In this document: piece after piece, positions 12,282-37,588 of the stretch
How positions within the stretch are numbered: the stretch's first letter is position 1
Layout: every line of letters begins with the position of its first letter
Assembly (NCBI GenBank): GCA_965220745.1
Contig: CBDCQT010000010.1
Coordinates: 32,001-96,000, forward strand
DNA length: 64,000 bases
Origin: Alphaproteobacteria bacterium
GTDB lineage: Bacteria; Pseudomonadota; Alphaproteobacteria; UBA828
Reading direction: 5' to 3'
Notes under the pieces: model-generated
What the model was told of the DNA's origin: nothing
Database searches by the model: none
Seen by the model: the letters and a program-made list of their open reading frames with translations, nothing else
Program-made: the position numbers and the translations under genes

Positions 12282-12360
12282 CCGACATCCCGGTGGCGAT
12301 GACGAAGGAAACCGCCCTTCCGGCAGCCGGCACTCAGGGTCGTCTGCGCCTCGCTGCCTC

Positions 12361-12696
12361 TCACGTCAGGACGCGAAGTGCGGTCTCCGGTGCCTTGTCG
12401 AGCACCCGCAACAGAGCGCGCGCCGCCCCGGTCGGGCAGCGCTTCCCCTGCTCCCAGTTGCGGATCGTCTCGTGCGGCACGTCGATGCGCCGTGCCAGCT
12501 CGGTCTGCGAAAGCCCCAGCCGCCGCCGGACCCGGCGCGCGTATCGCGCCATGTCCTGCATGGCCTCTTCCTCGTCCTCCCGCTCCTGCGCCGCGATCTC
12601 CGCCTCGGTGGTGGCGTCCACCCTGGCGGGGTCGATCCTCCCCTCCGGCAGGGTGGAGGGATCGTCGGGATCGATCCTGACGCGCGTTGTGCTCAT
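12361..12696 (-). CDS. XRE-HTH antitoxin partner of BrnT
   Basis: RVDATTEAEIAAQ...LGLSQTELARRIDVPHETIRNWEQGKRCP; overlaps the brnT 3' region. Confidence 0.85.
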   Translation of the reverse strand: MSTTRVRIDPDDPSTLPEGRIDPARVDATTEAEIAAQEREDEEEAMQDMARYARRVRRRLGLSQTELARRIDVPHETIRNWEQGKRCPTGAARALLRVLDKAPETALRVLT

Positions 12697-12952
12697 AATC
12701 CGCGATCTCCTTGCCATTGGCCTTGCGGGCCGAGATGATGCGAACGGCCGAACCCCGCACCGTGTAGACGACGACGTACACGCGCCCGTCAACCGCGCCG
12801 AGCAGCCGGTAGCGGTCCTCGCCATAGTCCCGCCGGCGATCTTGCGCGACGATCCGCTGCGGATCGAGGAAGGCGCGGACGGCATAGGCGAAGTCGAAGC
12901 CGCGACGCTCGAAACAGGCACTGTTCTTGGCCTCGTCCCATTCGAACTCCAT
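12674..12952 (-). CDS. brnT: BrnT-family ribonuclease toxin (expected stop absent; frame stays open to 11948)
   Basis: MEFEWDEAKN...RGFDF...DYGEDRY...VVVYTVRG...RIISARKAN. Confidence 0.82.
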
Positions 12953-13031
12953 GCCGGCACCATAGGCCAATGGCCTACGCTTGTCGAACGTGCCGTCCTG
13001 CATGGCATGCCCGGTTGCCCGGCGGACCGGG

Positions 13032-16000
13032 CTACATGGAGAGACCGCCGCCGCGATCGCGGGTCTTGGCTTTCCGGCGCTCGCGCTCTTGTTGCTCCTG
13101 CTTTTCCCGCTCCTGCCTCTGCCGCTCCAGCTTCCGCTGTTCCTGTCTCTGCTGCTCCTGCTGCCGGCGGCGTTCGATCTCGGCGTCGTCCGCCTTGAGA
13201 TCGGATTCGATCTTCGCCGACAGCCGCTTGATCTCGTCCGCCGCGCCGGGGCGGCGGTCGAGATGCCTGCCGAAGGTCTCGGGGTCGTCGAGGATCCTGC
13301 GGCAGTCGGCCAGCACGCGCCGGGCGCCCTCGCGCCACGCGGCATAGCCGGGAGCCTGGGTGACGTGGGCGTCATGCGAGTGGGCTTCGCGGGCGCGCTC
13401 GTCCCGCTCCCGGAGCGAGGCCGCCGCCGCCGACAGGGTCCGGGCGACGAAGCGCTCCGCCGCCCTGCGCCGCTCCCTTGTCGCGTCGTCCAGGACCACG
13501 TCCCTGTCAGGCGGCGGGCGCCGTTCAGTGGTTTCGGCCGGGACCGGGGTCGAGACTTCGAACTGCTCGCCGATCGCCCTCAGTGCCGACAGCTCCTCGG
13601 CCGGCGCCGTCTCCAGCGCCTCGATCAGCGCCTCGCGGTCGTCGGTCAGCAGCACCACGTTGTCCCTGGCGCGCGTGAGCTCCACGTAGAACATCGCCTG
13701 GTCGGCCGGCGCGCGGTCCGTATCCAGCACCGCGATCACCCGGTCGCAGGTGAGGCCCTGGGCCGCGTGCACGGTGGAGGAGTATGCGTGGTCCAGGTGG
13801 TGCAGCTGCGGATCGTCGCGCGCCATGGCGATCTCGCGCCCGTCCTGCGTCCGTATGTGCACGTTCACCGGGCCGATGGACAGCACCTCCGCATGCTCGC
13901 CGTTGATCAGGCCGCGCGCGGCATCGTTGCGGGTCCAGCGCACCCGGTCGCCTGCCCTGAGCACCATCGGCCGGGTCTCGTAGAGGTCGAGCCGGTAGCG
14001 GATGTAGCCGGCGGGGTCGATCCGCCGCTCCCTGCCGTCGGGATGGGCCAGCAGCACGCGCCCGTCGTCCTGCGTCTCCAGCACGCGGCAGGCATCGCCG
14101 GCCCTGGCCTTGACGCCGTAGACGTCGTGATGGAAGACCGCGACGTCGCCCGGCCGGTAGTTCGCAACCTCGCCTTTCTGCGAGCGCGTCAGGTGCAGGT
14201 TGACGTAGCGCTCGATCTCCAGCGCGGGGCCGCGCAGCACGCCCTCGTCTTCCAGGCCGTGGCGGACGGCGTCGTTGATCTCGGCCTGAGCTCGTGCGTC
14301 GGCGCCAGGATCGCCGTGCCGGCGCGCAAGGACGGATCGAGGTCGAGCCAGAGCTGCGCCGCCTTCCTGCCGAGCTCGTCGCTCTCCGTCTCCAGGACGC
14401 CCTTGCCGAGCTCCTCCACCGCCATGCGCGGCTCGTCCGCCACCATGTGCAGTACCGCTGCCTTGAGGTCCGCGTCGCGCTGGCGCACCACCACGTCCAT
14501 CCGTGCCGTCGGCATGCCTGCGTCCTGCAGCAGGCCGAAGGGCTGGCCGGCCTCCACTGACCGCAACTGCCTCCGGTCGCCGATGAGCGCGAGGCGCTCC
14601 ACGCCAGTCTCGGCTGCGATCCGCGTCAATGCCCGCATCTGCACGGTGCCGACCATCGAGGCCTCGTCGAGGATCAGCACGGTGCCGCCCAGGGCCTTGC
14701 GCGCTTCCCCTGTCCTCTCCGGCGAGGCGATGCCGTCGCCCACGTCGCGGTAGCGCGTCAGGAACCCCTGCAGGGTGCGGGCCGGGATGTCGGCCTCGCC
14801 CGCGAGCACATGGACCGCGCTCGCAGACGGGGCCAGGCCGACGATCCGATGCTCCCCGGCCAGCTCTCTCACCGTGCGCAGCATGGTGGTCTTGCCGGAG
14901 CCCGCATGGCCCTGCACCCCCACCGTGCGGTGGGGCGAGAGCAGGATCGCGCGCACGGCATCACGCTGCCCCTCGTTCAGTCCGTCCGCGTCAAGCCTGG
15001 CCTCGACCGCAGCCGGCAGCGCCAGGCTGTGGCCCGCGTCCAGACCCGCGCGCATGCCGGCGACGATGTCGCGCTCGGCGTTGCGCGCCCGGTCGGTGAC
15101 GAAGGCCAGGTCGGCCCGCCTGGCCTTCGCCTCGATCAGGTGCCCGTCGCGCCGCAGCCGGGCGATCCCGGCGTCCAGCGCTTCGAGCGCGTGCCGGCCG
15201 CCCCCGTGCGCGAGCGCCCAGGCACGCAGGTCGTTGGCGGAGAACACGGTGCGCCGCTCCTCCAGGTGCTCCACGGCGCGCCGGACCACCGACAGCGCCG
15301 ACGGAGGCGCGCGCGCCTCGCTCCGGGAGAGCGCCGATGCGCCGGCCCCGTTGCGGCCCCTGGCGCGGTCACGGTCCCTTGCGTGTCCGATCTCCCGCGC
15401 CCTCTCCTGCCACGTCTCGTGCAGCACCCGCCGCTCCGGCTCGGCCTTGCGCTGCCGCGTGTAGAGCGCCGCCTGCCGTGTCCGTGCCGGGGTGTTCTCC
15501 CAGCCGCGGTCGGCCATGTAGTCCAGAAGCTCCCTACGCCGGGTCGAGAATGCGTCCAGCATGGGCCGCCGGTAGCCCGCGATCTCGAACCCCGGCATCC
15601 GCCCCACCAGGGTCGGCACCGTGGCGTAGCCGATGTCTTCGAGGCGGGTCCGGAGCTCGTTGCGGTAGTAGGCCCCGATCAGGAGCTTGGAGCGTTCCAC
15701 CGAGGTGAACTCGGCGCTGCGCCAGTCCCCGTCCCGGCCGCGCGTCATGTTGGCGATCACCGCATGGGTGTGGAGCTGCGGATCCAGGTTGCGGCTCGCC
15801 AGGTGACGGAAGGTCGCCGCCGCCATGCCGTCGGCCTGCACCCGCGGCCGCCGCCCCGTCTCCGGCTCGTAGCTCCGGGTCTGGAGAAGCTCGGTCTCGA
15901 TGAAGCCCAGGGTGGCGCGCACCGCCTCGTCGTGGGCCCGCACCACACGCGCTCCCGTCTTCGGTGGCGCATAGACCAGCGCCTCCAGCGAGACCGACTT

Positions 16001-16276
16001 GGGCGCCGAGAAGGTCACGTCCACGCCGGGCCGGTGCTGGTGCTCGCCGTCGCGCAGACGCCCGAGGCGAAGATCGGTGCCGGGCACGTAGCCCGCGAGG
16101 ACGGCTTCGAAGCGCTTCGGGTTCACCCGCCCCTGCAGGCCCAGCAATGCCGCCGCCTCGCCGTGCCAGCGACTGGCCTTGCGGTGCTCCGGGTCGTTCC
16201 TGGCGTAGTACCCGTCCACCTCGAAGTAGTGCACCGTCGTGGCGGCGGCCTTCAGGCGCGTGACGGTCGCGACCAT
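13032..16276 (-). pseudogene. trwC: MOBF (TrwC/TraI-like) relaxase-helicase with a single frameshift near 14285
   Basis: N-terminal YF..DGYY, DVTFSAPKSVS, HLASRNLDPQLHTH, Walker A GHAGSGKTT, DEASM; C-terminal helicase part (HAYSSTVHAAQG, YVELTRAR) lies in another frame. Confidence 0.88.
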
Positions 16277-16282
16277 GGGCGC

Positions 16283-17182
16283 CTACGGCTCCACCGTGGG
16301 ATCGGAGTCGTCTTCCGGCGGCAATTCGGTCAGGTTCACGTTAGGAGGGAAGGGAATCGCCACTTCCCGCGTTGGATAGATGGTCACCGGGCACCCGATG
16401 GGCTTGTCTTCCAGCCGCGCCTTCGACGCGCAGGCGGCGAGCAGCGGCGCGAAGTGCTCCACGACGTGATCGTTCCACTCGCGGTGCGGATCGCCCAGGG
16501 ACATCACGTCGGCCTCCCCCTGCAGCACCGCGCCCAGAACGAAGAAGACGAAGGACGCGGCTCCGATGGCAAGACCTGTCAGCCAGGGGCGCCACCGCAG
16601 CCTCCCGGTCATGCGGGACATGGTCTCGGTGTGACCGCGCAGAGTGCTCTCCAGTGCCGTGGCGGCCTGCGTCAACTCCGCCATGCCCTGGGCGGCCACC
16701 TCCGCCTGCCGGGCGTTCGCCTGCGCCTGCTTGCCCGTGACACGGAGACGCTTGTCGAGCGCCTCGCCCTGCGCCTTCAGCGCGGCGGCGGCCTCGGCAA
16801 GCGCCCGCGCGTCGGCCGCCTCCCGCCCGTCCCGCCGCGCGGCAAGCTCCGCCGCCTTGTCGAGCGCACCCCGCGCGTCCTCGACCGCCTGCGTCAGCGC
16901 CGCCGTCTCGCGGGCCAGAGCCTCGGCCGTCTCGTGCTCCGGCCCCGGCGTCTCCTCGAGAGCGTCGATCCGGGCCGCCGTCGCGCGCACCGTCTCGAGG
17001 ATCTCCCGGATGGCGTCGTCGTGCGCACCGGGCTGCGGCGCTGTCGCCGCGGGCGGCGTTCCTGCCGCACCGGCACTCTGCCTGCCCTCCGCCCCTTCCG
17101 GCCGGCCCACCAGCAGGTCGCGGCCGTCAAAGCCTTCCTTGCTGGAATCAGAACTGCCGCGCCTCTCCTCCGCTGGCGCCAT
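16283..17182 (-). CDS. Hypothetical coiled-coil protein with one TM helix, upstream of relaxase
   Basis: ATG at 17182 with ggagg RBS; Ala-rich helical region, hydrophobic WLTGLAIGAASFVFFVLGAVL. Confidence 0.6.
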   Translation of the reverse strand: MAPAEERRGSSDSSKEGFDGRDLLVGRPEGAEGRQSAGAAGTPPAATAPQPGAHDDAIREILETVRATAARIDALEETPGPEHETAEALARETAALTQAVEDARGALDKAAELAARRDGREAADARALAEAAAALKAQGEALDKRLRVTGKQAQANARQAEVAAQGMAELTQAATALESTLRGHTETMSRMTGRLRWRPWLTGLAIGAASFVFFVLGAVLQGEADVMSLGDPHREWNDHVVEHFAPLLAACASKARLEDKPIGCPVTIYPTREVAIPFPPNVNLTELPPEDDSDPTVEP

Positions 17183-17476
17183 GGTCGCCTCCCTGCCCAA
17201 AACGCATTGTTCTTGGCAGGGCATATCGGAGCCGGCAGGCCGAATGGCAAGGCTAACGCGGAGTTGCTCACCTTCCTCCGCTTCAAACGACCATACACCG
17301 CCATATGCTTGACAAAGTTTGGTCTCCCCGCTGACACTCGCGCGGCCTTGGGCGCCAAGCAACGCTGGGGCTGGAGTCGCGCACCCAACCGGGTCGCGTA
17401 CGATTTGGAGTCCCAAGCTGCCGTGGCTTCCGGTTTGGACCCACCACGCCACGACATCTAGCGACGTGAGACTATC

Positions 17477-18511
17477 GTGAAAAGCACATACAACCTCATC
17501 CCCACAAATCAGATTGACTTTGACCGGGAGAACCCAAGGATCAAGGTCGCCCTCGAGAAGTACGGCAACAAGCTTGACGAAAAGCGCATCCGTTTCGCAC
17601 TGCAAACCGCCACGGAAGGATCCACCAGCGCTTCCTCCTACCGCTCCTTAAAGGATTCTATCAGAGCAGCCCGAGGTATCTCAGTGCCCATCGTCGTCTG
17701 GTCCAACGACGATCGATTCGTGTGCGTTGACGGAAACACCCGCTTGGCAATCTACCATGAGCTCCACGAGGAGGGGGCCCCCGGCAACTGGGCAGCCATC
17801 AATTGCCTTGTGCTCGACGACCCCGATCAGCGAGACATCGAGACGATTCGGGTCACAGCCCACCTCGTAGGCGCACGCGAATGGCCCGCCTACGAGAAGG
17901 CGCGATACCTTCATCACCTGCGCAACGTCGAGTTCATGGACTACGACGAGCTCATCGCCCGGTGCGGGGGTAATAAGACGACGATCACCCAGCAAATCGA
18001 CGCCTACCACGACATGAATGAGTTTTACCGCGACGTCAGCAGCGACGACGCATTCAAGGTTGATCGGTTTAGCGGATTTGTCGAGCTTCAGAAGACGGGC
18101 GTCAAGGACGCTATTTACAGTGCGGGTTTCGATCTCCACGATTTCGGCCGCTGGATACGCGACGGTCAGATATACCGACTGGCCGATGTTCGAAAGCTCC
18201 CCCGCGTTCTTGCCGACGACGAAGCGAAAGACACATTTGTCAACGGCGGTGTCCGGTCAATCGAAGACGCCATCGACGTTGCCGAGGCCAACCGCCGAAA
18301 GGACATCCATGCTCCAACGGCCGATATCACAGTTGCCAATGCCAGCATGGCGGTACTGGCCGAAGCTCTCCTTCAGAGAATCAAAGCCCTGCCACGAGAG
18401 GACTACCTTGCACTCCGCGATCGGCATTACGAGACCGCGGACCAAGACGTTGACACCTTGAGTGATCTCGCCGAACAACTCCGCGACCTACTCCAAGATG
18501 TCTCAAAGTAA
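17477..18511 (+). CDS. ParB/Srx-like N-terminal domain protein (operon gene 1)
   Basis: DRENPRI, PIVV, VDGNTRLA, WPAYEKARY. Confidence 0.75.
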   Translation: MKSTYNLIPTNQIDFDRENPRIKVALEKYGNKLDEKRIRFALQTATEGSTSASSYRSLKDSIRAARGISVPIVVWSNDDRFVCVDGNTRLAIYHELHEEGAPGNWAAINCLVLDDPDQRDIETIRVTAHLVGAREWPAYEKARYLHHLRNVEFMDYDELIARCGGNKTTITQQIDAYHDMNEFYRDVSSDDAFKVDRFSGFVELQKTGVKDAIYSAGFDLHDFGRWIRDGQIYRLADVRKLPRVLADDEAKDTFVNGGVRSIEDAIDVAEANRRKDIHAPTADITVANASMAVLAEALLQRIKALPREDYLALRDRHYETADQDVDTLSDLAEQLRDLLQDVSK

Positions 18512-18950
18512 CGTGCATCGTCTGCTGGTTGTCGCCGTCGCGCAAGCCATACAACAGCGTCATCCGGCGATGCACGTTACAGCTGATCTACTCGAAGCTC
18601 CTGGCGATCCGGTGCCTCCGCGCATCGGCGGCCACCGTCCTGACATCGTCGCCCGTTGCAGTGCCGCCTGTCTCCAGTTCATTATCGCGGAAGCCAAGAC
18701 CGACGGCGATATCGACAACCGACATACTCGAAGTCAAATTGGTGCCTTCGTGGATCACCTCGACGCCATGACAACGGGCACCGGCACCTTCATCTTGGCC
18801 GTCAACGGACATGTCGCAGATTCAGCAAGGACTCTACTCCGCTTTGCCTGTCGTCAACGCGTGTCGTCCCGACTCCATATCAAAGTGTTCGACGGCCTCG
18901 ACTTCTGGACCCTGGGTCCCCCTGGAGCCCCCCTGTGGCGTTTGTCCTAA
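18498..18950 (+). CDS. Small PD-(D/E)XK-like nuclease-fold protein (operon gene 2)
   Basis: IGGHRPDIVA...IIAEAKT; overlaps both neighbours. Confidence 0.6.
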   Translation: MSQSNVHRLLVVAVAQAIQQRHPAMHVTADLLEAPGDPVPPRIGGHRPDIVARCSAACLQFIIAEAKTDGDIDNRHTRSQIGAFVDHLDAMTTGTGTFILAVNGHVADSARTLLRFACRQRVSSRLHIKVFDGLDFWTLGPPGAPLWRLS

Positions 18951-20437
18951 GACGCCAACCCGAACTTTCGCCCAAACATGCGGCGTATCCCTACCAGCTT
19001 GACGCCATTCGTGCCGTCAAGGATCTCACCTACGCAGCCATCTTTCATGAGCAAGGACTCGGAAAGACAAAGATTGCGATCGACCTAGCCCTGTTATGGC
19101 TGCAGAGCGACTCCGTAGATACCGTGTTCATCGTCACGAAGAAGTCGCTGGTCGAGAACTGGCGTAACGAAGTTGCGGGTCATTGTCACATCACGCCGCA
19201 CATCCTGTCCGGCAACCGAGCCCAGAACAGCGCGTCCCTCAACTCGCCAGTGCTCCTCTACGTCACCAACTACGAAACCATTGCTGCCAACGTACCGATC
19301 ATCAGATTATTCCTACAGACTTGTCGCGTCGGTTGCATCCTCGACGAGAGCCAGAAGATCAAGAATCCCGAGGCCGCCCTGACGCGTATCTTCCTAGACA
19401 TGGCCTCGTCCTTCGAGCGACGCATAATTATGACCGGAACACCCGCTGCAAACCGTCCGTATGACATCTGGGCGCAGATCAAGTTTCTTGATGGCGGTGA
19501 AGCGCTCGGTGATACCTTCGCGACTTTCAGGCAGAGAATGGATTTGCCCGCCAAACACGCGGAGGCGGCCGACTATGGCAGTCGGCTGTCCACGATCCAT
19601 CAACGTGTCGCCGCGTTTACTGTCCGAGAGACCAAGAACACGGCAGGTATCCACCTACCGGAAAAAACCATCACTGCTCATCACGTGGACTTGCCACCTT
19701 GGCAAATGGCAAAGTACGTCGCCTACCGCGACGAACTCGCCTATGAGTACGATATGAAAGGTGTTGTCGAAGTCGACGATGTTGAGAGCATTCTCAAGCG
19801 ACTACTTCGCCTAGTCCAATGTGCCTCGAATCCGGCACTCATTGACGGTCGATACGACCATGATCCCGCTAAATTTCCCCTTCTTCTTGATATGTGCGAT
19901 AACTTTACCGAAGATTCCAAGGTGATTATTTGGACCGGATTCATTGATAACGTTAACTGGCTAGCCGCCAAACTCGCAGAATTTGAGCCTGTATGTATAC
20001 ACGGCAGCTTGCCTATTCGCCAGCGCAATAGAGCCGTTGATTCTTTTACTAATTCCTCCAATTTAATTTTGATCGCCACTCCAGGTTCTGCAAAAGAGGG
20101 ACTTACTTTGACCGCCGCGAACCACGCTATCTTCTTTGACCGTGGCTTTAGCCTCGACGATTACCTCCAAGCACAAGACCGCATCCACCGTATCTCTCAG
20201 ACCCGCAATTGCTTTATCCATAATCTTATTGCCAATGATACGATCGACGAATGGGTTGATGTCTTACTGACTGCCAAGTATCGCGCGGCGCAACTAACAC
20301 AGGGCGATATCGATCCCGCTGCTTTTCACGACTACTTCCGTACAGACATTTCTGAGGTACTGCAAGGCATTCTGTTTCCGCGTCGAGCCACCTCAAGCCG
20401 TCAGTTGTCTGAGCAATCGGAGGCCACGGGCCGATGA
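18935..20437 (+). CDS. SNF2/SWI2-family helicase (operon gene 3)
   Basis: YPYQ, EQGLGKT, DESQKIKN, TGTP, EGLTLT, QAQDRIHRISQ; GTG start inferred. Confidence 0.9.
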   Translation: MAFVLRRQPELSPKHAAYPYQLDAIRAVKDLTYAAIFHEQGLGKTKIAIDLALLWLQSDSVDTVFIVTKKSLVENWRNEVAGHCHITPHILSGNRAQNSASLNSPVLLYVTNYETIAANVPIIRLFLQTCRVGCILDESQKIKNPEAALTRIFLDMASSFERRIIMTGTPAANRPYDIWAQIKFLDGGEALGDTFATFRQRMDLPAKHAEAADYGSRLSTIHQRVAAFTVRETKNTAGIHLPEKTITAHHVDLPPWQMAKYVAYRDELAYEYDMKGVVEVDDVESILKRLLRLVQCASNPALIDGRYDHDPAKFPLLLDMCDNFTEDSKVIIWTGFIDNVNWLAAKLAEFEPVCIHGSLPIRQRNRAVDSFTNSSNLILIATPGSAKEGLTLTAANHAIFFDRGFSLDDYLQAQDRIHRISQTRNCFIHNLIANDTIDEWVDVLLTAKYRAAQLTQGDIDPAAFHDYFRTDISEVLQGILFPRRATSSRQLSEQSEATGR

Positions 20438-21450
20438 ACCCTGATGAGACAAGCATCTCCATATTGGAGCATGACGTTTCCGCCCGCCACGAGCTTATTC
20501 CCATCGATCAACTGCTTTTTTTGCCCGACAATCCTCGGGTGTATGCTGCTATACGAGATATGTCCGATTTCGCTGACCTCACACCAGACGAGAAGCAGCA
20601 ACGCATCTATGAACGCTTGCTCCAAGAGCCTAGCGTCAAGAATCTTATACCTGAGATCCAGCGGGACGGTGGACTACAAGAACCCGTGATTGTCCGTTGG
20701 GACACTCGGCAAGTGATTGAAGGCAACTCGCGTTTAGCTGCTTACCGGAAATTACTTGACGAAAATTCCCAAGATGACCGCTGGACACAAATCCGCTGTC
20801 TTGTCGTAAAGACCCTTACGGATGAACAACAGACGCGACTTCTAGGTCAAGCGCATCTAGAGGGAAGAACCGAATGGTCGCCGTATGCGAAGGCTTTGTT
20901 CTGCTTTCGCTGGGTGGTTGAGGACGGGCGAGATATTGCTACTTTGACACGAGTATGCCGTTTTACTGCCGCTGAGATAAGGAAGAATGTTAAAATTATA
21001 GAACTAATGCAGCAGAATAATGATAAGATCCTATCTAATTTCAGCTATTACAACGTTCTCATCCGAAATCGGGTCATCTCATCTGCTATCGGAGATAGCC
21101 CACTACTGAAACAAACACTGTTGACCCAAATCAAATCTGAAGACTTTACCGCCCAAGAAATGCGCGAGCATCTTCCTGTCATTATAGCCAAACCGCGTAT
21201 TCTAAAAAAATACGAGAAAGGTGAAGTGACGCTTGATGAAGCCTTTGAACGCGCAAAAATTAGTGGCGCTGAACAACAGCTCAAGAAGATTCGCGACGGC
21301 CTAGACGACATCCGTTCAGAGGATATATCTCCGCTGGAACGCGATGCTCTCGGTGCTGTACAGCAGCTTGTTAGACAGATCAATCGGCACCTTAAGCGTG
21401 TCTCTGGTATGGTCGAGGCTAAACTTGCTGAGAAATCCAACAATTCATGA
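20434..21450 (+). CDS. Second ParB/Srx-like protein (operon gene 4)
   Basis: PDNPRV, GGLQEPVIV, IEGNSRLA, WSPYAKA; ATGA overlap. Confidence 0.75.
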   Translation: MNPDETSISILEHDVSARHELIPIDQLLFLPDNPRVYAAIRDMSDFADLTPDEKQQRIYERLLQEPSVKNLIPEIQRDGGLQEPVIVRWDTRQVIEGNSRLAAYRKLLDENSQDDRWTQIRCLVVKTLTDEQQTRLLGQAHLEGRTEWSPYAKALFCFRWVVEDGRDIATLTRVCRFTAAEIRKNVKIIELMQQNNDKILSNFSYYNVLIRNRVISSAIGDSPLLKQTLLTQIKSEDFTAQEMREHLPVIIAKPRILKKYEKGEVTLDEAFERAKISGAEQQLKKIRDGLDDIRSEDISPLERDALGAVQQLVRQINRHLKRVSGMVEAKLAEKSNNS

Positions 21451-23105
21451 ATGAAAGTTTGGATGCTATGATAAAAAGGAACGTTCTGCTAGTCGAACCA
21501 GGCTATCCGAACAAGTATCCTCCACTCGGCCTGATGAAGATTGCCGCCTACCATGGCCCCAACGGCCGCGGCGATAATGTGCTGTTTGTTAAGGGCGATA
21601 CGCCTGAAGCTCTTAATCGCGTCTGGGACCGCGTCTACGTAACCACTCTATTCAGTTTCGAGTGGAAGCGGACTTCCGCTGCTATCGACTTCGCACTGCG
21701 CGCCGTCCGCGGTCAGGCGGAGCGAGTATTTGTCGGCGGCATAGCGGCCACACTGATGTTTGACGAGTTTGCCGGCGAGCCACGCTGGGCGGGTGTACGC
21801 TTCATCAAGGGCCTTCTCGACCAGCCGCCCGCCCGCTCTCTGCAACTTTTCGCCGAGGACGGCGATTTCGGTGCCGATGATCTTGCTGGCACGTCGATCG
21901 AGGAATTGGTTCCCGATTACAGCATTCTCCGCCAGACTCCCTACACCTATCCAGTACGGAATGCCTACTTCGGATACGCGTCCCGGGGATGCGTCCGTCA
22001 ATGTGCCTTCTGCGGCGTTCCTAAGCTGGAGGGTGCGCAACGCGAGATGCCTCCGATCACTAGCCTTATCGCCGGCGTAGACGAGCAGTTTGGTCCGAAG
22101 AAAGACCTCATCCTTATGGACAACAACATCGCCGCCAGTTCCCGATATAAGGAGGTGATCGCCGAGATTCGGGATCTTGGGTTCCAGAGCGGCGCTATGT
22201 TCGAACGACCGGACACTCTACCCGTCAAACGACGTGTCGACTTCAACCAAGGGATCGACGCCCGCATCCTCTGCAAGACACCTATGTACCTCAAGGAGAT
22301 GGCGACGATCTGCATAGATCCTTTGCGCATCGCCTTCGACCACGTTGGGATGCGGCGGGTCTACGAGCGTTCTGTACATATGGCGGCCGAATACGGGTTG
22401 AGATCGCTGTCCAACTACATGCTTTACAACTTCATGGACACGCCGAACGACCTCTACCAGCGGATGAGCATCAACATTGAGCTCAACGAGCGCCTTGGCG
22501 TTAGGATTTGGTCCTTCCCAATGCGGTATCTGCCCGTCACGATGAAGGATCGTTCACACGTGGGCAAGAACTGGAACCGCTACTACCTCAGGTCCTTCCA
22601 GATCATGCTGCAAGCTACACACGGCGTCGTGTCAGGCAGCAACGAGTTCTTTCTCAGGGCCTTTGGAAATAGCGATGAAGAATTCGAGAGGCTTCTCGCA
22701 CTGCCACATGCGTTCATATTCCAGCGAGACTTCTATGAACACGGGGAAGGTAGACCTGTTCTCGACGAGTACCTTGCCCTGCTGCACCGGGCCACTGAAG
22801 CAGAACGCATCGAACTCATCAGCCTGCTCAGCGAAACTTTGCTCGCTCGACCACGCCGCCAAGCATTCCTTCGCCTACTTTCCGATAAGTCCACAGGCCA
22901 GCTCATCCGCGAGCTCGCACGATTCCACGCTATCGATACAAAGGCTGCGAAAGTCACAGACATAGCCAACGTCTTCCCCGAGGTGTCACCCGACCACATG
23001 CTTCCAGAGCCCGATGCGCTCGTCGAGGACGCGGGGCTCTACGAGCCGCTCGAACCGACAGCCCAAGTCACCTCCAGTCACCACGCTGAACGCGGATCCT
23101 GCTGA
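21447..23105 (+). CDS. Radical SAM protein with putative cobalamin-binding-like N-terminal domain (operon gene 5)
   Basis: YPPLGLMKIAAY, VFVGG, PDYSIL, SRGCVRQCAFC (CxxxCxxC), MDNN, DFNQGID. Confidence 0.85.
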   Translation: MNESLDAMIKRNVLLVEPGYPNKYPPLGLMKIAAYHGPNGRGDNVLFVKGDTPEALNRVWDRVYVTTLFSFEWKRTSAAIDFALRAVRGQAERVFVGGIAATLMFDEFAGEPRWAGVRFIKGLLDQPPARSLQLFAEDGDFGADDLAGTSIEELVPDYSILRQTPYTYPVRNAYFGYASRGCVRQCAFCGVPKLEGAQREMPPITSLIAGVDEQFGPKKDLILMDNNIAASSRYKEVIAEIRDLGFQSGAMFERPDTLPVKRRVDFNQGIDARILCKTPMYLKEMATICIDPLRIAFDHVGMRRVYERSVHMAAEYGLRSLSNYMLYNFMDTPNDLYQRMSINIELNERLGVRIWSFPMRYLPVTMKDRSHVGKNWNRYYLRSFQIMLQATHGVVSGSNEFFLRAFGNSDEEFERLLALPHAFIFQRDFYEHGEGRPVLDEYLALLHRATEAERIELISLLSETLLARPRRQAFLRLLSDKSTGQLIRELARFHAIDTKAAKVTDIANVFPEVSPDHMLPEPDALVEDAGLYEPLEPTAQVTSSHHAERGSC

Positions 23106-24604
23106 TGTCCGAGGATGCTCTCGTCGGCGGTGACATACTCCGCCTCGTCACTGCAGGCATGTACGACAATCCACTAGTCATCTACCGCGAATACCTTCAG
23201 AACGCCGCCGACTCCATAGCCTCTCTCAACGATGGTACCGGCTCGGTGAGCGTCACCATCGATCCAGTAGGATCGCAAGTCACCATTATGGACGATGGGA
23301 CCGGACTTTCGCCATCCGACGCTGTCCGTCGCCTAGTCCACATTGGTAACAGCACCAAAGTTCGCGGCGTCGAACGTGGACTACGTGGCATCGGTCGACT
23401 ATCGGCTCTCGCCTTCGCTGAGAACGTCCACTTCACGACGCGCACACGTGCCTCAGAACCTGTTACTCGGGTGTCCTGGAGCAGTCGTGCATTGCGCAAA
23501 CTTGATGTCGCTCACGTTGATGCCAGGACCGCAATCGAAGCCTGTACAACCGTCCAATCCCTTTCAAACGATCATTGGCCTGATCGATTTTTTCAGGTGA
23601 CAGTCGACGGAGTTACTCGACACGCCGCTTCGAGCATTCTCAACAGGGATGCTGTCAGGAGCTACATCGCAGAGGTCTGCCCAGTGCCCCTGGACTCTTC
23701 CTTCCCGCTTGAAGGCGAGATCCAGAACTTCCTTACCGCTCACACGGATTATTTTGTGCTCGACGTTCGGATCAACGGAGATCAGGAGCCGATAGTACGG
23801 CCTTTCAAACAGGCAATCCCTCTAACGGACGATTTTTCCGCCGTATTTGAGCGGTTGGAAACTCAGGTGATTCCTCAAGTTGATCAAGGCCACCCTGCCG
23901 CTGTTCTGTGGCTCGCACACACACCCTACGCCGGCTCCATATCCCGACGACTGAGCATCCGTGGCCTCCGTGCACGTGCCGGAAATATCCAGATCGGCTC
24001 GGATGGTGTTTTCGAACATCTCTTCCACGAGACACGCTTCAACGGTTGGTGCGTAGGCGAGGTACATATTATCGACAGTCGTATAGTCCCGAACGCTCGC
24101 CGCGACTACTTCGAGGCTGGTCCCCATCTCCGTAACCTCGAAAACCACATCGGCGCCATCGCCCACAAGATCAGCTCCCGGTGCCGTCGCGCTTCATCTC
24201 AGCGAAACAAGCTCCGAGCCGCAAGACTGGTCATTAATCAGGCCAGCTGCGCCCGCGAACTAGCCACCTCCGGGTATCTCCGCGCCGAGGACGCTTCACA
24301 ACTGCTCAGGCTTCAACGCGAACGCTTACTCCAAGTCAGAGAAACTCTCCAACATGTTCAAGGCGTGACCTCGCACTCTAGTCTAGACGACCTTGACCTT
24401 TGCCAGGCTCAACTGGACGCCGTCAAGTTCGACGCCGAACCTTCCCTGATCGGCATTCCACCTGACTCTGTCGGTAATCTCCTATCGGCCTTTGGTGTGC
24501 TCTCCCAGTCCCTGCCGCCGGATACGGCCGTTGACTTGATCGAAACCATTATGCGTCGGCTGTCCGCCGATATGTCAGCCTCCAAGGCTGCCAAGAAGGC
24601 TTAA
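23105..24604 (+). CDS. GHKL/MORC-like (HATPase_c) ATPase (operon gene 6)
   Basis: REYLQNAADS (N box), DDGTG (G1), GLRGIGRLS (G2), PNARRDYFE; TGATG overlap. Confidence 0.85.
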   Translation: MSEDALVGGDILRLVTAGMYDNPLVIYREYLQNAADSIASLNDGTGSVSVTIDPVGSQVTIMDDGTGLSPSDAVRRLVHIGNSTKVRGVERGLRGIGRLSALAFAENVHFTTRTRASEPVTRVSWSSRALRKLDVAHVDARTAIEACTTVQSLSNDHWPDRFFQVTVDGVTRHAASSILNRDAVRSYIAEVCPVPLDSSFPLEGEIQNFLTAHTDYFVLDVRINGDQEPIVRPFKQAIPLTDDFSAVFERLETQVIPQVDQGHPAAVLWLAHTPYAGSISRRLSIRGLRARAGNIQIGSDGVFEHLFHETRFNGWCVGEVHIIDSRIVPNARRDYFEAGPHLRNLENHIGAIAHKISSRCRRASSQRNKLRAARLVINQASCARELATSGYLRAEDASQLLRLQRERLLQVRETLQHVQGVTSHSSLDDLDLCQAQLDAVKFDAEPSLIGIPPDSVGNLLSAFGVLSQSLPPDTAVDLIETIMRRLSADMSASKAAKKA

Positions 24605-25044
24605 AGTATAATAAGACGTCACCTTGGATATACCATTGGAAAAGTCCCCTTTTCAGGATCACTCGACCTCATAACGTTTCCAAAAATCTCTTTCTTCCAG
24701 GGAATACATTTTTCGGACTCCCGTCACGCCTCTCCCCCCCACTAGTAAAGCCTTCTTGCGCGGTCAGAAGGTCCTCTAGGGAGATTAGAATCGGATCCTT
24801 CGGTTTTATATGTTCCGGCAACATCTACCGGCTCCTTACGCGCCACCTCAGCGCCTACTGCGACATTAAGTACTTCCCTCTCTTTGCTTGACGCACAGAG
24901 AAGCTGTTCGGGAATACTTGGCCCCGGACCCTTTGAGGCATCTCGATCAGGATGGCGTCGCGCCACCAAAGCTCCGCTTGCCCAGTGGCCCTAAGTGTCG
25001 GCCTCATTGAGGCGCGTCGGTGGCACCAGCATGAGCACTTCGAG

Positions 25045-25768
25045 TCAGCCACTTGAGCTTACCTCACTCCCATCCAAGGCCCGCGCGATGGCCGCACCGA
25101 TGCGCTCCGCCGCCGCCTCGGTCTCGCGGTCTCCGACATGGGCGTAGCGCAGCGTCATGCTCGGCCGCTTGTGACCCAGCAGGCGCGAGACGACGGGCAG
25201 CGGGATGCCCTGCAAGACGGCGTGACTTGCGAACGTGTGTCTGAGGTCATGCAGGCGCACGTCTTCGAGCCCCGCTCTCTTGCGTACCGAACGCCAGAGC
25301 GGCAGGCCGGACGACAGCGGCCGCCCGGGATCGAGCGGCGAGGGGAAGACGCAGGCGCTCCCCGAGCGTGGCTGACGCTCCAGGATGGCGCGGGCCGGCG
25401 CGCTCAGAAGGACGGTTCTCGGTCCGCCCTTGGCGTCGACCAGATTGAGCGTGTTCCCGTCGATGTCCTGCCAGCGCAGAGTAACGATCTCGTTCCTTCG
25501 ACAGCCCGTCAGCAACAGAAGACGGATGATGTCCGCCTGCCGGGCGCGTGACGGTCGCACGCTGCCATAGTGGTCAAGCTCGTGGTGGAGGCGACGGACC
25601 TCCTCGCGCGACAGGAAGCGCGTGAGCTTCGGACGGGGATTCCGCCTGATGCCGCGGACCGGATTCGTATCGAGATGACCGCAGACGACTGCATGGTTCA
25701 GCATCCGGCGGAGCAGGTTCAGCCCGTGATTGGCCCCGCCGGGAGCGGTCCGGCTGTACTCGTCGAAC
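25045..25768 (-). pseudogene. Tyrosine recombinase/integrase, N-terminus removed at IS3 junction
   Basis: LLTGCRRNEI, HDLRHTFAS, LLGHKRPSMTLRYAH; reading frame runs into the IS3 left end. Confidence 0.88.
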
Positions 25769-27031
25769 TGATCCTCCCCCATCGGATTGGTCCACCCTTA
25801 GGTTATGGAAAGAGGAGGACCGACGATGGCAAGGAAGCGTTACAAGCCCGAGGAGATCGTGAGCCTGCTGCGGCGGGCTGAGGTTCTGAACGGCCAGGGC
25901 ATGTCGATGGCGGACGCGATCCGCGAGCTTGGGATCAGCGAGGTTACCTTCTACCGCTGGCGCAAGGAGTATGCCGGGATGAGCGGCGATCAGCTCCGCC
26001 GTTTGAAGGAGCTCGAGAAGGAGAACGAGCGGCTGCGCCGTGCGGTCTCCGATCTGACGCTGGACAAGCAGATTCTCAAAGAGGCCGCAGGGGGAAACTT
26101 CTAAGCCCCTCGCGCCGGCGCCAGTGCATCGATCATGTCTGTGACCGGCTCGGGGTCTCGGAACGCCGCGCTTGCCGGGTGCTGGGGCAGCACCGCTCGA
26201 CCCAGCGCCGCATCCCGCGCGGCCGCGACGACGAGGACCGCCTGGTCGCGTACATGATCGAGCTGGCCCGCCAGTACGGCCGTTACGGCTATCGCCGCAT
26301 CGCGGCCCTGCTTCGCGATGCCGGCTGGCAGGTCAACGACAAGCGGATCGAGCGCTTGTGGCGGCGCGAGGGGCTGAAGGTGCCCGGCAAGCAACCGAAG
26401 CGGGGCCGGCTTTGGCTCAATGACGGCTCCTGCATCCGGCTGCGCGCCGAGAGGGCGGATCACGTCTGGTCCTACGACTTCGTCCATCACCGGACGTATG
26501 ACGGCAGGGCCTTCCGCATGCTCAACGTCCTGGACGAGTTCACCCGCGAGAGCCTGGTCATCCGGGTGCGCAGGAGGCTTTCCTCGATCGACGTCATCGA
26601 TGTGCTGACCGACCTGTTCATCCTGCGCGGCATTCCGACCTGGATCCGTTCCGACAACGGTCCGGAGTTCGTCGCCGAGGCCGTCAGGCGGTGGATCGCT
26701 GCGGTCAGCGCCCGCACCGCCTTCATCGAGCCGGGCTCACCCTGGGAGAACGGCTACATCGAGAGCTTCAATGCGCGGCTGCGCGACGAGCTCCTGAACG
26801 GGGAGATCTTCTACACCCTGAAGGAAGCCCAGGTTCTCATCGAATCGTGGCGGTGCCATTACAACGCCGTGCGCCCACACAGCAGCCTGGGATACCGGCC
26901 GCCGGCCCCGGAGACGATCATCATGCCAAGCTGGCCGCCCGGCTCCGCTACGCTCCGCCGGTCACCCAGCTTGGCCGGCAAACCCGCAATGCACTAACAT
27001 TCGACTTGGACCAGTCGACGGGGGCAGGTCA
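25769..27031 (+). mobile_element. IS3-family (IS407-like) insertion sequence
   Basis: TG...CA ends with imperfect IRs tgatcctcccccatcggattggtcca / tggaccagtcgacgggggcaggtca; no target duplication. Confidence 0.88.
25826..26997 (+). CDS. IS3 transposase OrfA (25826-26104) / OrfB (to 26997), programmed -1 frameshift
   Basis: OrfA HTH MARKRYKPEEIV; slippery GGGGGAAAC near 26090-26098; OrfB WSYDF, SDNGPEF, ENGYIESFN. Confidence 0.92.
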
Positions 27032-27260
27032 GTCTGTCCAGCCGTGTCAGGAGGCTATATCCCTCATCCTTGATGCGGATCGATTCGCCTGACGTCAGGT
27101 TTCCCATGTAGCTCCCTGTCTTGCCGCCCACAATTATCGTGTGACCGTACTTGGGGAAGTTGTAGGCGTAGTCAGCCAAGCTGACGGCTACAGGCTCCGC
27201 GCGAACCGTGCCGATCCCGACCAGACCTATGACTGCCATTGCTGCGATGATCGCTTTCAT
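27032..27260 (-). pseudogene. Putative secreted protein truncated by IS3
   Basis: Signal-peptide-like MKAIIAAMAVIGLVGIGTVRA; frame runs into the IS3 right end. Confidence 0.45.
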
Positions 27261-27515
27261 ATCCACCCTTCTCATGCTCGGGTTGCGACGCCGGCGGGCG
27301 CCGGGCCGTTGTCACCACCCACAGGTACGTGAGAAGTCCTGCCTATTTACCAAGACCAGGGAGCTACCCCGGCCCGAGTGCAGGCTGTTGTATTCGGCAG
27401 GTGACCCGACAGAGCGGGACCTGCGAGTGGTGACGGAAGTAGCGTCACAGAAAGTGACGGTAGTCGCAATAGCGTGGTATGATGGGGGTGGCGGTTAAGA
27501 ACAAGGAGTCGCGCC

Positions 27516-27701
27516 GTGGACGATGCGGATACCCACGCCAAGACAGCAGTCAGGGTCAAGCCATCCAGTTACCAGCCGAGCAAGGCGGAGCTGGAGGAAG
27601 ACATGAGCGTCGATGCAACGCCGGAGGCCCTGGCGGACTGCATCGGGCAGTCAGTGGCGGTGACGAAGCCTCAAGTGCGAACCGGGACCGATACCGGCTA
27701 A
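27516..27701 (+). CDS. Small hypothetical protein
   Basis: aggag RBS; YQPSKAELEEDMSVDATPEALA. Confidence 0.45.
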   Translation: MDDADTHAKTAVRVKPSSYQPSKAELEEDMSVDATPEALADCIGQSVAVTKPQVRTGTDTG

Positions 27702-27764
27702 GCCAAGATCGACGAGAGTACCAATGCGGAAGAGCGGCGCGCCCGATGGGCGCTCTTGTTACTT

Positions 27765-28061
27765 TCAGTTATAACTCCCTTCGTAAAGATCGTCCCAATC
27801 GGGGTTGTGCGCGACGATGAGATTGACCTTCCAGGCGCGCGGCCAGTGCTTCATGGTCCGTTCCCGCTGGATGGCCGCGGCAATGTCCTCGTGGCGCTCC
27901 GCGTAGACGAGCCGGGTCAGGCGGTACCGCTTGGTGAACCCCTCGACCAGGCCCTCGCGGTGTTCCCACGCCCTGCGTACAACGTTACTGGTGACACCGA
28001 GATAGAGCGTGCCGTTGGGTCGGTTGGTCATGATGTAGACCCAGCCCCCGCCCTCTCTCAT
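27765..28061 (-). CDS. GIY-YIG nuclease (small UPF0213-like, REP-adjacent)
   Basis: WVYIMTNRPNGTLYLGVTSNVVRRAWEHREG...AIQRERTMKHWPRAWK...NPDWDDL. Confidence 0.9.
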   Translation of the reverse strand: MREGGGWVYIMTNRPNGTLYLGVTSNVVRRAWEHREGLVEGFTKRYRLTRLVYAERHEDIAAAIQRERTMKHWPRAWKVNLIVAHNPDWDDLYEGSYN

Positions 28062-28082
28062 GTCCCCATGCTGCAATCCGTG

Positions 28083-28129
28083 AATGCCCGGAACACCCCC
28101 GGGCCTTGATCCGGGGGCCGAGCATGACG
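28083..28129. repeat. Compound CGTC-type REP beside GIY-YIG gene
   Basis: atgcccggaacacccccgggccttgatccgggggccgagcatgacg. Confidence 0.6.
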
Positions 28130-28401
28130 ACGTGGGGCAATAGCCCGGTCTTGGCTCAGGACTCCACGCCACGCCCGGCCGTGAGCTCGTGATTGTACCG
28201 TGCTGCCTCGGCGCGCGCCTCGGTCCCCCCCTTTCGCCTCGCTCTCCGCGTCGGAGAGCTCCTCGACGGTATGCACTTGACGTTCTCGCCGTTTCCTGGC
28301 TCATACGCTTGGATTGAGATAATCGCGCGTCGGTTCCTTCAACAGCGCCAATTGGAAGATCTCAATGATGCGCTGCTTTATTTAGGAGGGGAGTATCGGT
28401 T

Positions 28402-28926
28402 TTGAGTGCTTACTTTGAGTGGAATGAGGATTTGCCATTTCTTGCACAACAAAATCGAGAGGTCTTTGCGCGTTTTGGCCTAGCAATGTACTACTCACAG
28501 TGCTTAGAAACACAAATCGGAATTATGCTGTCCACAATGTACAATGTGAACTTTTTTGACAGTTCTATGGAGGAACGAGATATTTTCTTTGAGAAAAATT
28601 TGTCTAAGACACTGGGCGCAATGGAGAAAGATCTTGAAAATAGAGCGTCGCTACCGCCTAATCTAGAAGTCAAGTTGAAAGATGCAGTTAAGCTTAGAAA
28701 CTGGCTAGCGCATCGCTATTTCTACGAGCGCGGAAAAGATATCCTGCTGTCTGATGGGCGAGAAAGAATGATTCTAGAACTTCAAGAGAAGGTTGATTTT
28801 CTGAAGAACGTAGATGAGGAATTCGTGAACATACTGAAAGTGTGGCGGCGCGATAAGGGAATATCCGATGAGCAAGTACAAGAAGAAATGCAAAAACTTC
28901 TCTCAGACTCCAACATAAGCTTCTGA
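28402..28926 (+). CDS. Hypothetical AT-rich helical protein (possible HEPN-like RNWLAH motif)
   Basis: 174-aa ORF, aggagg RBS, LRNWLAHRYF (Rx4H). Confidence 0.6.
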   Translation: MSAYFEWNEDLPFLAQQNREVFARFGLAMYYSQCLETQIGIMLSTMYNVNFFDSSMEERDIFFEKNLSKTLGAMEKDLENRASLPPNLEVKLKDAVKLRNWLAHRYFYERGKDILLSDGRERMILELQEKVDFLKNVDEEFVNILKVWRRDKGISDEQVQEEMQKLLSDSNISF

Positions 28927-29163
28927 ATGAATATTTCAGATTTTCTATAGATTGGCTTGCCTCTCTCTGCGGCACTCATTGAGCAAAGCGTGTTTGAGCA
29001 AGAACAAGCTGAGAGAGATTCGCTGGAGTCCATAAACACTCTAATCGGCTATTGCCCCCTATTCCACTAATGAGCGTGCGCTTCCTGCAACATGCTATGG
29101 TCACCAGCCACCTCCACAAAGGTTTTCTAGGGGATGGCGTAAGCGAGAGGAGCCACCGCCACA

Positions 29164-37499: not shown

Positions 37500-37588
37500 G
37501 CCCGCGTGGCGGAATTTGGTAGACGCAACGGACTTAAAATCCGTTGGCCCTATGGGCCGTCCCGGTTCGAGTCCGGGCGCGGGCACCA
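37500..37588 (+). tRNA. tRNA-Leu (anticodon TAA)
   Basis: Acceptor stem gcccgcg/cgcgggc, D-loop ggtagac, anticodon arm acgga-cttaaaa-tccgt, long variable arm, ggttcgagtcc T-arm, encoded CCA. Confidence 0.95.

Follow-up and report, generated by a model that had tools for sequence, protein, structure and literature searches.

Dpd is a multi-gene mobile system in which a conserved modification enzyme is combined with the ParB-like DGQHR ATPase DpdB and, for restriction, with the SNF2-type helicase DpdE; the insertion of preQ0 into DNA depends on DpdB, and restriction is the task of dpdD-K (PMC10164549). The Dnd and Ssp systems also have DndB-type DGQHR proteins and a patchy, mobile spread, and their modification module is decoupled from varied nuclease modules (PMC10853773). 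MORC and paraMORC operons, mobile as well, bring together a GHKL ATPase, a superfamily-II helicase (SWI2/SNF2 helicases included), a restriction-fold nuclease and DNA methylases (PMC2292703). Radical S-adenosylmethionine (SAM) enzymes serve anti-phage defence in Ophion and as prokaryotic viperins. Here we describe a cassette of six genes (g1 to g6) at positions 17477-24604 of a 64,000-nucleotide stretch of an alphaproteobacterial genome (assembly GCA_965220745.1, contig CBDCQT010000010.1, positions 32,001 to 96,000), hereafter the window. We found that its radical-SAM gene and its GHKL ATPase gene form the core of a horizontally mobile, patchily distributed family of loci and that the genes around this core are interchangeable. 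The whole is tentatively read as a restriction-modification-like defence system.

All six genes lie on the + strand. They encode a first ParB-like protein, with which accessory module A begins (g1, 344 aa, 17477-18511); a small protein with a PD..ExK motif (g2, 150 aa, 18498-18950, with a longer open reading frame (ORF) from 18462); an SNF2-family helicase core (g3, 500 aa from a GTG start, 18935-20437, with a longer ORF from 18656); a second ParB-like protein (g4, 338 aa, 20434-21450); a radical-SAM enzyme (g5, 552 aa, 21447-23105); and a GHKL (Bergerat-fold) ATPase that is Hsp90-like by sequence (g6, 499 aa, 23105-24604). An earlier sequence-only reading of the window had described six co-oriented genes that overlap at every junction, and the sequence confirms this. 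The TAA of g1 is at 18511 and the ATG of g2 at 18498 (a 14-nt overlap), and the g2 stop is at 18950 and the g3 GTG at 18935 (16 nt). The g3/g4 and g4/g5 junctions are ATGA at 20434 and at 21447, and the g5/g6 junction is TGATG at 23103-23107, in which the g5 stop and the g6 start share one base. The block is also AT-richer than its host, as had been noticed, with a GC content of 0.50-0.58 at 18-25 kb as against 0.69-0.74 at 11-17 kb and 0.66 beyond 25 kb.

The cassette shares features with each of the described systems. In PADLOC v2, g5 and g2 had no match, g6 had only marginal matches to TmtA, g1 and g4 had marginal matches only, and g3 matched by its helicase domain alone, that is, the helicase parts of ZorD (1.2e-38), DpdE (1.1e-31), DrmD and HmaA (1.6e-16, helicase C part). 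The likeness to Dpd lies in the DpdE match and in the DGQHR proteins of the sister variants described below, which match DpdB at 6.6e-16 and 2.7e-17. In contrast to Dpd, there is no PADLOC match to DpdA (the transglycosylase), DpdB or DpdC among the six proteins, and the enzyme here belongs to the radical-SAM proteins and has a GHKL ATPase as its partner. The window's own variant has no DGQHR gene: neither TIGR03187 nor PF14072 matched g1 or g4, which read DGNTR and EGNSR at that place, and the window's genome has no PF14072/DndB-family match. With Dnd and Ssp the locus shares DndB-type DGQHR proteins (in sister variants only), the uncoupling of a putative modification module from varied nuclease modules and the patchy mobile spread, whereas no DndA/C/D/E or SspABCD match was found by PADLOC among the six proteins. 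The resemblance to the MORC/paraMORC operons, and to Hma (helicase-methylase-ATPase) through the HmaA match, has its limits too, as the former carry DNA methylases and g6 is, by sequence, closer to Hsp90/HtpG than to MutL or MORC.

Ophion differs from the cassette in joining its radical-SAM enzyme to a PHP phosphatase and a phosphoribosyltransferase (bioRxiv 10.1101/2025.09.30.679545). Viperins act alone or with kinases. The partners of g5 are wholly different, and g5 has no match to the PADLOC pVip models. The likeness to Zorya is confined to ZorD, of whose 908 profile positions the match covers 446-880, the helicase part; ZorA, ZorB and ZorC gave no match. As the sequence-only reading had stated, none of the six proteins is a conventional DNA methyltransferase in Pfam, PADLOC and NCBIfam scans. 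Its idea that a radical-SAM enzyme occupies the methylase slot is a weaker analogy than that with Dnd and Dpd, whose DGQHR proteins occur in sister variants.

No PADLOC system is matched by the set, which agrees with the earlier view that this is not a named defence system. Our literature searches returned no description of the gene set or of a radical-SAM enzyme paired with an Hsp90-like ATPase, with the limit that supplementary candidate lists (e.g. PADLOC PDC) might hold the set, and that the more than 500 candidate systems of bioRxiv 10.1101/2025.09.30.679545 could include it as an unnamed supplementary entry. In the available text of the 2008 MORC/paraMORC paper by Iyer, Abhiman and Aravind (PMC2292703), the words 'radical', 'ParB' and 'DndB' do not occur; the accessible part of a 2024 reappraisal of Dnd mentions radical SAM only when discussing DndC, and that of a 2026 BREX survey does not contain 'radical', 'GHKL' or 'Hsp90'. 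The system is apparently undescribed so far.

A conserved radical-SAM and GHKL pair with interchangeable modules

When one genome was scanned for each species, 90 relatives came up, and 80 loci (L001-L080), all from metagenome-assembled genomes, were retained. By tblastn with the six window proteins, g5 was found in 80 of these loci, g6 in 78, g1 and g4 in 49 each, g3 in 48 and g2 in 40, and g6 lay directly downstream of g5 in 78 of the 80. Synteny beyond the window, which mattered to the sequence-only reading, was thus found: dozens of loci, under 10 phylum labels, have their genes in this order, more than chance would give. The notion of one indivisible six-gene architecture was not borne out. 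The loci consist instead of a core pair, the radical-SAM and GHKL genes, and at least four interchangeable accessory modules, which we defined by clustering all ORFs of the 80 loci.

Module A, the ParB - PD..ExK - SNF2 - ParB set of the window (g1-g4), was complete in 46 of the 80 loci (38 alone, 3 with module C and 5 with module D); it was located upstream or downstream of the core and was at times split or inverted. Module B, present in 14 loci, comprises a 364-aa NurA-like protein, a 560-aa HerA and a second GHKL protein. The 560-aa protein was identified as HerA by its match to 7f6d_B (3.7e-34); the 364-aa protein had no match in the PDB profile search and is homologous to an exonuclease annotated beside HerA in Marinitoga camini virus 1 (hhalign 99.6%). 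Module C is a 771-aa DGQHR protein of the DndB/DpdB-like kind in 10 loci (7 alone, 3 with A), with matches to TIGR03187 (5.9e-60) and DpdB (6.6e-16) and nothing below E 0.19 in the PDB profile search. Module D, also in 10 loci (5 alone, 5 with A), pairs a 626-aa BbrUII/MutL-type GHKL protein, the third GHKL, with a 332-aa protein of the PP_RS20740 family. No module was recognised in the remaining 8 loci, mostly short contigs or broken genes.

We then mapped the module labels on a quick maximum-likelihood tree of 74 radical-SAM sequences. Seven rows labelled as having no module (L055, L064, L066, L069, L071, L079 and L080) were left out, and L005 was set to module A by hand from its tblastn matches. 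The label changed at least 21 times, as compared with a minimum possible of 5 and a mean of 31.9 after shuffling, indicating that the modules have often been exchanged around a stable core. When g1-g3 sit elsewhere, as in L049 and L064, g4 stays beside the radical-SAM gene, and L064 has g4 with the radical-SAM and GHKL genes only. Therefore, g4 is counted with the core, and g1-g3 are regarded as a detachable arm.

Some further features of the related loci were recorded. The 771-aa DGQHR protein (L072:7590-9905 and homologs) has an N-terminal part of 230 residues with invariant Q107-I-D109, D114-D-E116 and E122-C, a motif that recalls a restriction-endonuclease-type site; there was one weak PADLOC match to a Csx1-type nuclease (E 0.001). 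Damaged cassettes occur, with insertions of 1.6-3.3 kb splitting the operon in L002 and L070 and in-frame stops in g1 of L004, g4 of L018 and L077, and g6 of L062. Sulfatase genes (cluster c32) recur in the flanks.

Protein families of the cassette

The radical-SAM enzyme g5 is the most conserved protein of the system, with a mean column identity of 68% over 30 aligned rows. C182-x3-C186-x2-C189 is invariant in 30/30 rows (CVRQCAFC in the window), which upholds the assignment of g5 to the radical-SAM proteins. Pfam Radical_SAM (PF04055) matched 30/30 family members at E<=0.1 (best 3e-5). The window's own g5 scored 15.4 bits (E 0.022) against PF04055, below the cut-off of 29.5 bits; among 20 distant long forms of g5, two reach this cut-off (P0186 with 30.0 bits and P0131 with 29.9 bits). 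Orthologs on plasmids carry the RefSeq name 'radical SAM protein'. The N-terminal domain of g5 may be B12-binding-like: Pfam B12-binding matched 7/30 members at E<=0.1 (best 0.0056) and 4/20 long forms at E<=1e-3, all below the cut-off. A g5 homolog, P0108, matched unnamed or generic radical-SAM clusters only, one of them with B12-binding on 21% of its members. NCBIfam TIGR01125 matched g5 at 8.8e-4, around CxxxCxxC only. A MiaB/RimO methylthiotransferase was considered and rejected, because no cysteine other than C182, C186 and C189 is invariant in the 30-row alignment and the N-terminal domain has no second cysteine triad.

The g5 family is large. After clustering at 90%, 5678 representatives matched at E<=1e-3 among 8000 candidates scored, and the best 120 were 77-100% identical; after clustering at 50%, there were 2224 representatives at E<=1e-3, 1171 at E<=1e-10 and 419 at E<=1e-30. 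At the end of g5 (23025-23042), an acidic motif with the consensus EDExVEDAGLY follows a variable linker, and E527, D528, A529 and L531 are invariant in 30/30 rows; this acidic tail resembles a peptide to which a partner protein would dock. Among the distant relatives P0129-P0186, some of 680-820 aa have a C-terminal extension of about 200-330 aa without a Pfam domain, and these long forms did not match the g1, g2, g4, g6, HerA or NurA-like profiles. For others, of 620-680 aa, the alignment falls into three segments, which looks like an insertion of about 130 aa within the radical-SAM core. The annotation of one archaeal plasmid homolog mentions an intein.

In g6, the N-box (E29/N33/D36), DxGxG (D63xGxG67) and GxxGxG (G92..G95xG97) are invariant in 27/27 rows, and the mean column identity is 57%. 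Pfam HATPase_c_3 (3.1e-7) and NCBIfam PRK14083 'HSP90 family protein' (2.7e-13) matched the protein. With the family profile against the PDB, HtpG (2ior_A) was found at 7.4e-11, and all 60 of the 60 matches listed were Hsp90/HtpG. The earlier label 'MORC' is not supported, since the nearest relatives by sequence are Hsp90/HtpG N-domains, not MutL or MORC. We conclude that g6 is a GHKL ATPase, by its sequence Hsp90-like rather than demonstrably MORC.

The designation of g1 and g4 as ParB-like is sustained by several weak but consistent matches together with NPR/GNxR motifs. For g1, NCBIfam TIGR03764 ParB was matched at 7.3e-5 and Pfam ParB_N in 9/24 homologs (best 4e-5), both below the curated cut-offs, and the family profile reached the ParB chain 4umk_A at 0.004. 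No direct Pfam ParB match was found in the 22 members of the g4 family, and the Rhizobium homolog of g4 (31% identity) is named 'ParB N-terminal domain-containing protein' in RefSeq. N19-P20-R21 and G86-N87-x-R89 are invariant in g1 (mean column identity 55%), as are N33-P34-R35 and G97-N98-x-R100 in g4 (47%). The two families align with each other by hhalign at 99.9% (E 1.8e-33), and g1 and g4 are paralogs. Membership of either in PDC-M38A or PD-Lambda-5_A was rejected, the matches being too weak (9.8e-7 to 7.6e-3) and covering parts of much longer profiles.

Profile searches with g2 gave no match in Pfam, PADLOC or NCBIfam and nothing meaningful in the PDB. Its motif P48-D49 ... E65-A-K67 is kept, as the sequence-only reading had supposed, with P48, D49, E65 and K67 invariant in 19/19 aligned homologs and a mean column identity of 51%. 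From this motif, a restriction-endonuclease-fold nuclease is a reasonable inference for g2. Helicase g3 was likewise correctly named: both lobes exceed the Pfam cut-offs, with SNF2-rel_dom at 2.2e-26 (93.1 bits, cut-off 24.9) and Helicase_C at 6.2e-16 (59.1 bits, cut-off 23.5). Its translation contains GLGKT, DESQ and QAQDRIHRISQ, and alignments with homologs start at residue 5 counted from GTG 18935. The catalytic motifs of the cassette look intact, in that CxxxCxxC of g5, the GHKL boxes of g6 and PD..ExK of g2 are invariant in the alignments and GLGKT and DESQ are present in g3.

Spread over chromosomes, plasmids and phages

We compared window positions 16001-26000 with the related loci by blastn and found L012 to be 82.6% identical over 7139 nt and L001 81.4% identical over 7141 nt, both being cassettes of genomes placed in other phyla. 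This match spans 17459-24594, that is, the operon, and no flanking gene, the TrwC relaxase included, is common to these loci. On the radical-SAM tree, which covers ten phylum labels, the window belongs to a five-member clade of module-A rows (support 99), whose other members stand under three phylum labels. Among 20 congeners, two have a radical-SAM homolog at E<=1e-30; both carry module B, and their radical-SAM proteins are 78% and 63% identical to that of the window. Each of the three carriers in this genus thus has a version of its own. A single copy of the cassette is present in the genome of the window. The orthologs of pyrB and of the acyl-CoA dehydrogenase, which flank the region, lie from about 53 kb to more than 1.5 Mb apart in the four congeners that have both (G018, G003, G004 and G016), and for this reason no simple insertion site could be demonstrated in these four; G017 has no PyrB match. 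The titles of the related loci include Poribacteria, Poriferihabitaceae and Spongiihabitans, which we take to be sponge-associated groups. Together with these titles, the occurrence of near-identical cassettes under 10 phylum labels hints that genes are exchanged intensely inside a single habitat.

Related sets are also present in alphaproteobacteria in culture, where conjugative plasmids carry them, e.g. in Mesorhizobium NZP2077. By tblastn against plasmids, 20 records were found, 12 of them with 54-63% identity (Novosphingobium, Mesorhizobium, Rhizobium, Roseomonas, Bradyrhizobium and Agrobacterium), and in all 11 of these 12 that are annotated the radical-SAM match adjoins a 'DGQHR domain-containing protein'. 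On pR132505 of R. leguminosarum WSM1325, homologs of g1 (37%), g2 (43%), g3 (52%) and g4 (31%) are followed by a 350-aa DGQHR protein (domain match 2e-44), a radical-SAM protein (55%) and a GHKL protein (34%), and a convergent pair of GHKL and PIN-like genes (the latter by RefSeq name) lies alongside. On pNL1 of N. aromaticivorans DSM 12444, PIN-like, GHKL, DGQHR, radical-SAM and GHKL genes occur together with the 771-aa DGQHR protein at 64% identity. SOS-response-associated peptidase and reverse transcriptase genes are among the plasmid neighbours. A temperate Thermotogae virus has a shorter radical-SAM homolog (31% identity) adjoining the same HerA/exonuclease pair, with no GHKL gene within 5 kb. 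In Phocaeicola and Bacteroides phages, distant g5 homologs of about 305 aa (about 25% identity) lie among DNA methyltransferase and PAPS-reductase genes.

A possible modification-restriction mechanism and its alternatives

The reading that we favour, with a confidence that falls a little short of even, is that of a horizontally mobile, two-part restriction-modification-like defence system. The radical-SAM enzyme g5, perhaps cobalamin-dependent, the ATPase g6 and g4 as a ParB-like, NTP-binding DNA clamp would form a core that marks host DNA, and the mark would be covalent and installed by radical chemistry. In sister variants, a DGQHR/DndB-like protein accompanies this core. The arm of g1, the nuclease g2 and the SNF2 translocase g3 would then act in restriction by tracking along DNA and cutting it where it is unmarked, with the nuclease module reading the absence of the product of g5, which would be the self-mark. 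What the analysis demonstrates is the gene families, their linkage, their modularity and their mobility; the substrate, the mark and its read-out belong to the proposal.

Several lines speak for this proposal. The core is constant, and the cassette is mobile and patchily spread. Every partner family is DNA-directed (ParB-like, SNF2, PD..ExK, DGQHR, HerA with NurA-like, and PIN-like). As in Dnd and Dpd, conservation is much stronger in the enzyme than in the proteins that accompany it, and DpdB sets a precedent for ParB-like helpers. The overall pattern of a conserved enzyme, an ATP clamp, a ParB-fold helper and swappable motor-nuclease modules parallels Dnd and Dpd, and it is this parallel that leads us to favour modification and restriction. 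There is also a precedent for radical-SAM chemistry on DNA, as gp53 of phage M6 acts on DNA-borne bases and was called by its authors the first radical-SAM enzyme with a part in installing a DNA modification (PMC8989533). Literature searches returned no cellular radical-SAM enzyme that writes a DNA modification.

Known defence genes are frequent neighbours of the loci. The flanks of the system, up to 4 kb away, contain 305 ORFs that do not overlap and reach 250 aa or more; the 100 nearest the system were submitted to PADLOC, and 23 matched a defence model at E<=1e-10, a count made without a control set that is suggestive and not an enrichment test. The matches include LmuB (7e-176), GajB (6e-203), two TmtA (1e-91 and 2e-184), MkoB (2e-49), mad3 (1e-98) and SspH (3e-66), as well as PDC-S68, PDC-S02, PDC-S11, three PDC-S01, type I/II methylases and DRT-associated proteins.

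Other observations weigh against modification and restriction. That DNA is the substrate of g5 is something we only infer. The missing control of the neighbour count belongs here too, as PADLOC profiles also catch generic helicases and methylases, and the flanks of the window itself hold mobile-element genes and no defence genes. Loci with module B have no ParB-like gene within 10 kb, indicating that ParB-like proteins are not essential to the core. Four unrelated accessory modules that all read one mark would be less economical than a common signal from the core. For g5, the PDB search with the profile of its N-terminal domain gave no relevant chain, just an irrelevant ribosomal-protein match, that with its C-terminal part gave no informative match, and the likeness to solved structures is confined to the cluster motif (RimO/TM_1862, 4jc0/2qgq, E 0.01-0.016).

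The point about economy leads to the principal rival, which we consider unlikely. Here, the radical-SAM and GHKL core would sense infection and make a modified nucleotide, either a poison for phage replication or a signal to the accessory nucleases; in the latter case, the product would be bound by the NTP-binding ParB-like, DGQHR or GHKL proteins, which would switch the nucleases on. Viperins make ddhCTP, and canonical ParB binds CTP, which is also the substrate of viperins. One core with at least four swappable nuclease-motor modules is the pattern of signalling defence, and this explanation fits that pattern better; ParB-fold domains bind NTPs, and radical-SAM defence without DNA modification exists in viperins and Ophion (bioRxiv 10.1101/2025.09.30.679545). 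However, g5 matches none of the PADLOC viperin models, module B lacks a ParB-like protein, profile scans of the accessory proteins showed no recognisable second-messenger sensor domain, and DGQHR proteins have so far been tied to DNA-modification systems.

It is similarly improbable, in our estimate, that the cassette serves its mobile carriers and not cell defence, by repairing or processing transferred DNA or by marking it against restriction in the recipient. The window cassette sits between a relaxase and a recombinase, and the sets of cultured bacteria lie on conjugative plasmids near SOS-response-associated peptidase and reverse transcriptase genes. SNF2, HerA/NurA-like and MutL/Hsp90-like ATPases occur in repair too, the phage homologs lie among methylase genes of the sort that phages use for evasion, and before gp53 the sole known DNA-associated radical-SAM enzyme was a repair enzyme, spore photoproduct lyase (PMC8989533). 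Nevertheless, most of the 80 loci are chromosomal and have no mobile flanks in common, 23/100 neighbouring ORFs match defence models in the uncontrolled count above, and dedicated nuclease modules that are swapped fast are typical of conflict systems, not of repair.

A third alternative, in which the GHKL clamp and the ParB-like proteins would direct the radical-SAM enzyme, as a weapon in itself, to abstract hydrogen from foreign DNA and damage or cross-link it before helicase-nuclease modules clear it, would draw on the same DNA-directed partners, on the extreme conservation of the enzyme and on the end-processing nature of the HerA/NurA-like and SNF2/nuclease modules, but we hold it to be very improbable, as it leaves self/non-self discrimination unexplained, an oxygen-sensitive cluster enzyme would be a slow weapon, our literature searches gave no precedent for a radical-SAM nuclease-like effector and we know of none.

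Within the modification-restriction reading, a bolder version would make this the first case of a cellular immune system in which a radical-SAM enzyme, perhaps a cobalamin-dependent one, writes the DNA self-mark; we regard this as possible, though on the unlikely side. In this version, the mark would be carbon-centred, for instance a methylation or some other functionalisation at an unactivated C-H of a base or sugar, beyond the reach of ordinary methyltransferases, the Hsp90-type ATP clamp and the ParB-like NTPases would load the enzyme on DNA, and the helicase-nuclease modules would read the mark. If DNA modification is true, it would add a new marking chemistry beside methylation, phosphorothioation and 7-deazaguanine, bring in an enzyme class new to DNA tagging, and give a new explanation for "unknown" signals in single-molecule real-time (SMRT) and nanopore methylomes. 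If it is not, there is still a large, strongly conserved and mobile family without an assigned function. The cultured plasmid carriers (pNL1, pR132505 and Mesorhizobium NZP2077) make the system testable.

Setting of the cassette in the window

Housekeeping genes bracket the region, with pyrimidine synthesis on the left and an acyl-CoA dehydrogenase on the right. The relaxase and the integrase that the sequence-only reading had placed on either side of the cassette are real. The + strand ORF 14810-17461 has no family match and is not the relaxase, which is a TrwC-type (MOBF-type) protein on the minus strand, with its relaxase and helicase part at 14189-16276 (Pfam TrwC 8.1e-77, AAA_30 1.5e-46) and the C-terminal part of the helicase in a separate frame at 13032-14240 (-, UvrD_C_2 3.2e-7). 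The two frames overlap by 52 nt, which suggests a frameshift and a decaying mobile element. The left flank also contains insertion sequence (IS) transposases at 7689-8831 and 9073-10413, a BrnT toxin domain inside a long ORF at 11948-13375 (-), and NikA-like ORFs among the mobile-element debris. Between the relaxase and the cassette lies a 440-aa ORF without a family match (16283-17605, -), whose first 128 nt are antisense to g1; its sole tblastn matches in the related loci are antisense shadows of g1, and its true start is probably further in.

To the right of the cassette are a short tyrosine recombinase (25045-25782, -, Pfam Phage_integrase 6.6e-25) and an IS3-type transposase (26179-26997, +, rve_3 4.2e-28 and rve 3.4e-17). 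Both are placed outside the cassette, since other loci are homologous at the DNA level only as far as 24594. A scan of 16900-25100 for promoters and terminators gave 3 and 7 sites, respectively, no excess over shuffled sequence (means 3.9 and 7.3), and Rfam and tRNA scans gave nothing but a tRNA-Leu at 37500-37588, far from the cassette. Past the IS3 element, a low-GC tail (0.50-0.61) at 27001-29000 encodes a protein with a GIY-YIG nuclease domain (27765-28304, -) and contains, at 28402-28926 (+), an ORF without matches. A second low-GC stretch at 58001-60000 (0.47 as against about 0.68), in which the ORFs 58005-58469 (+) and 59879-60328 (-) have no Pfam match, may be another foreign insert.

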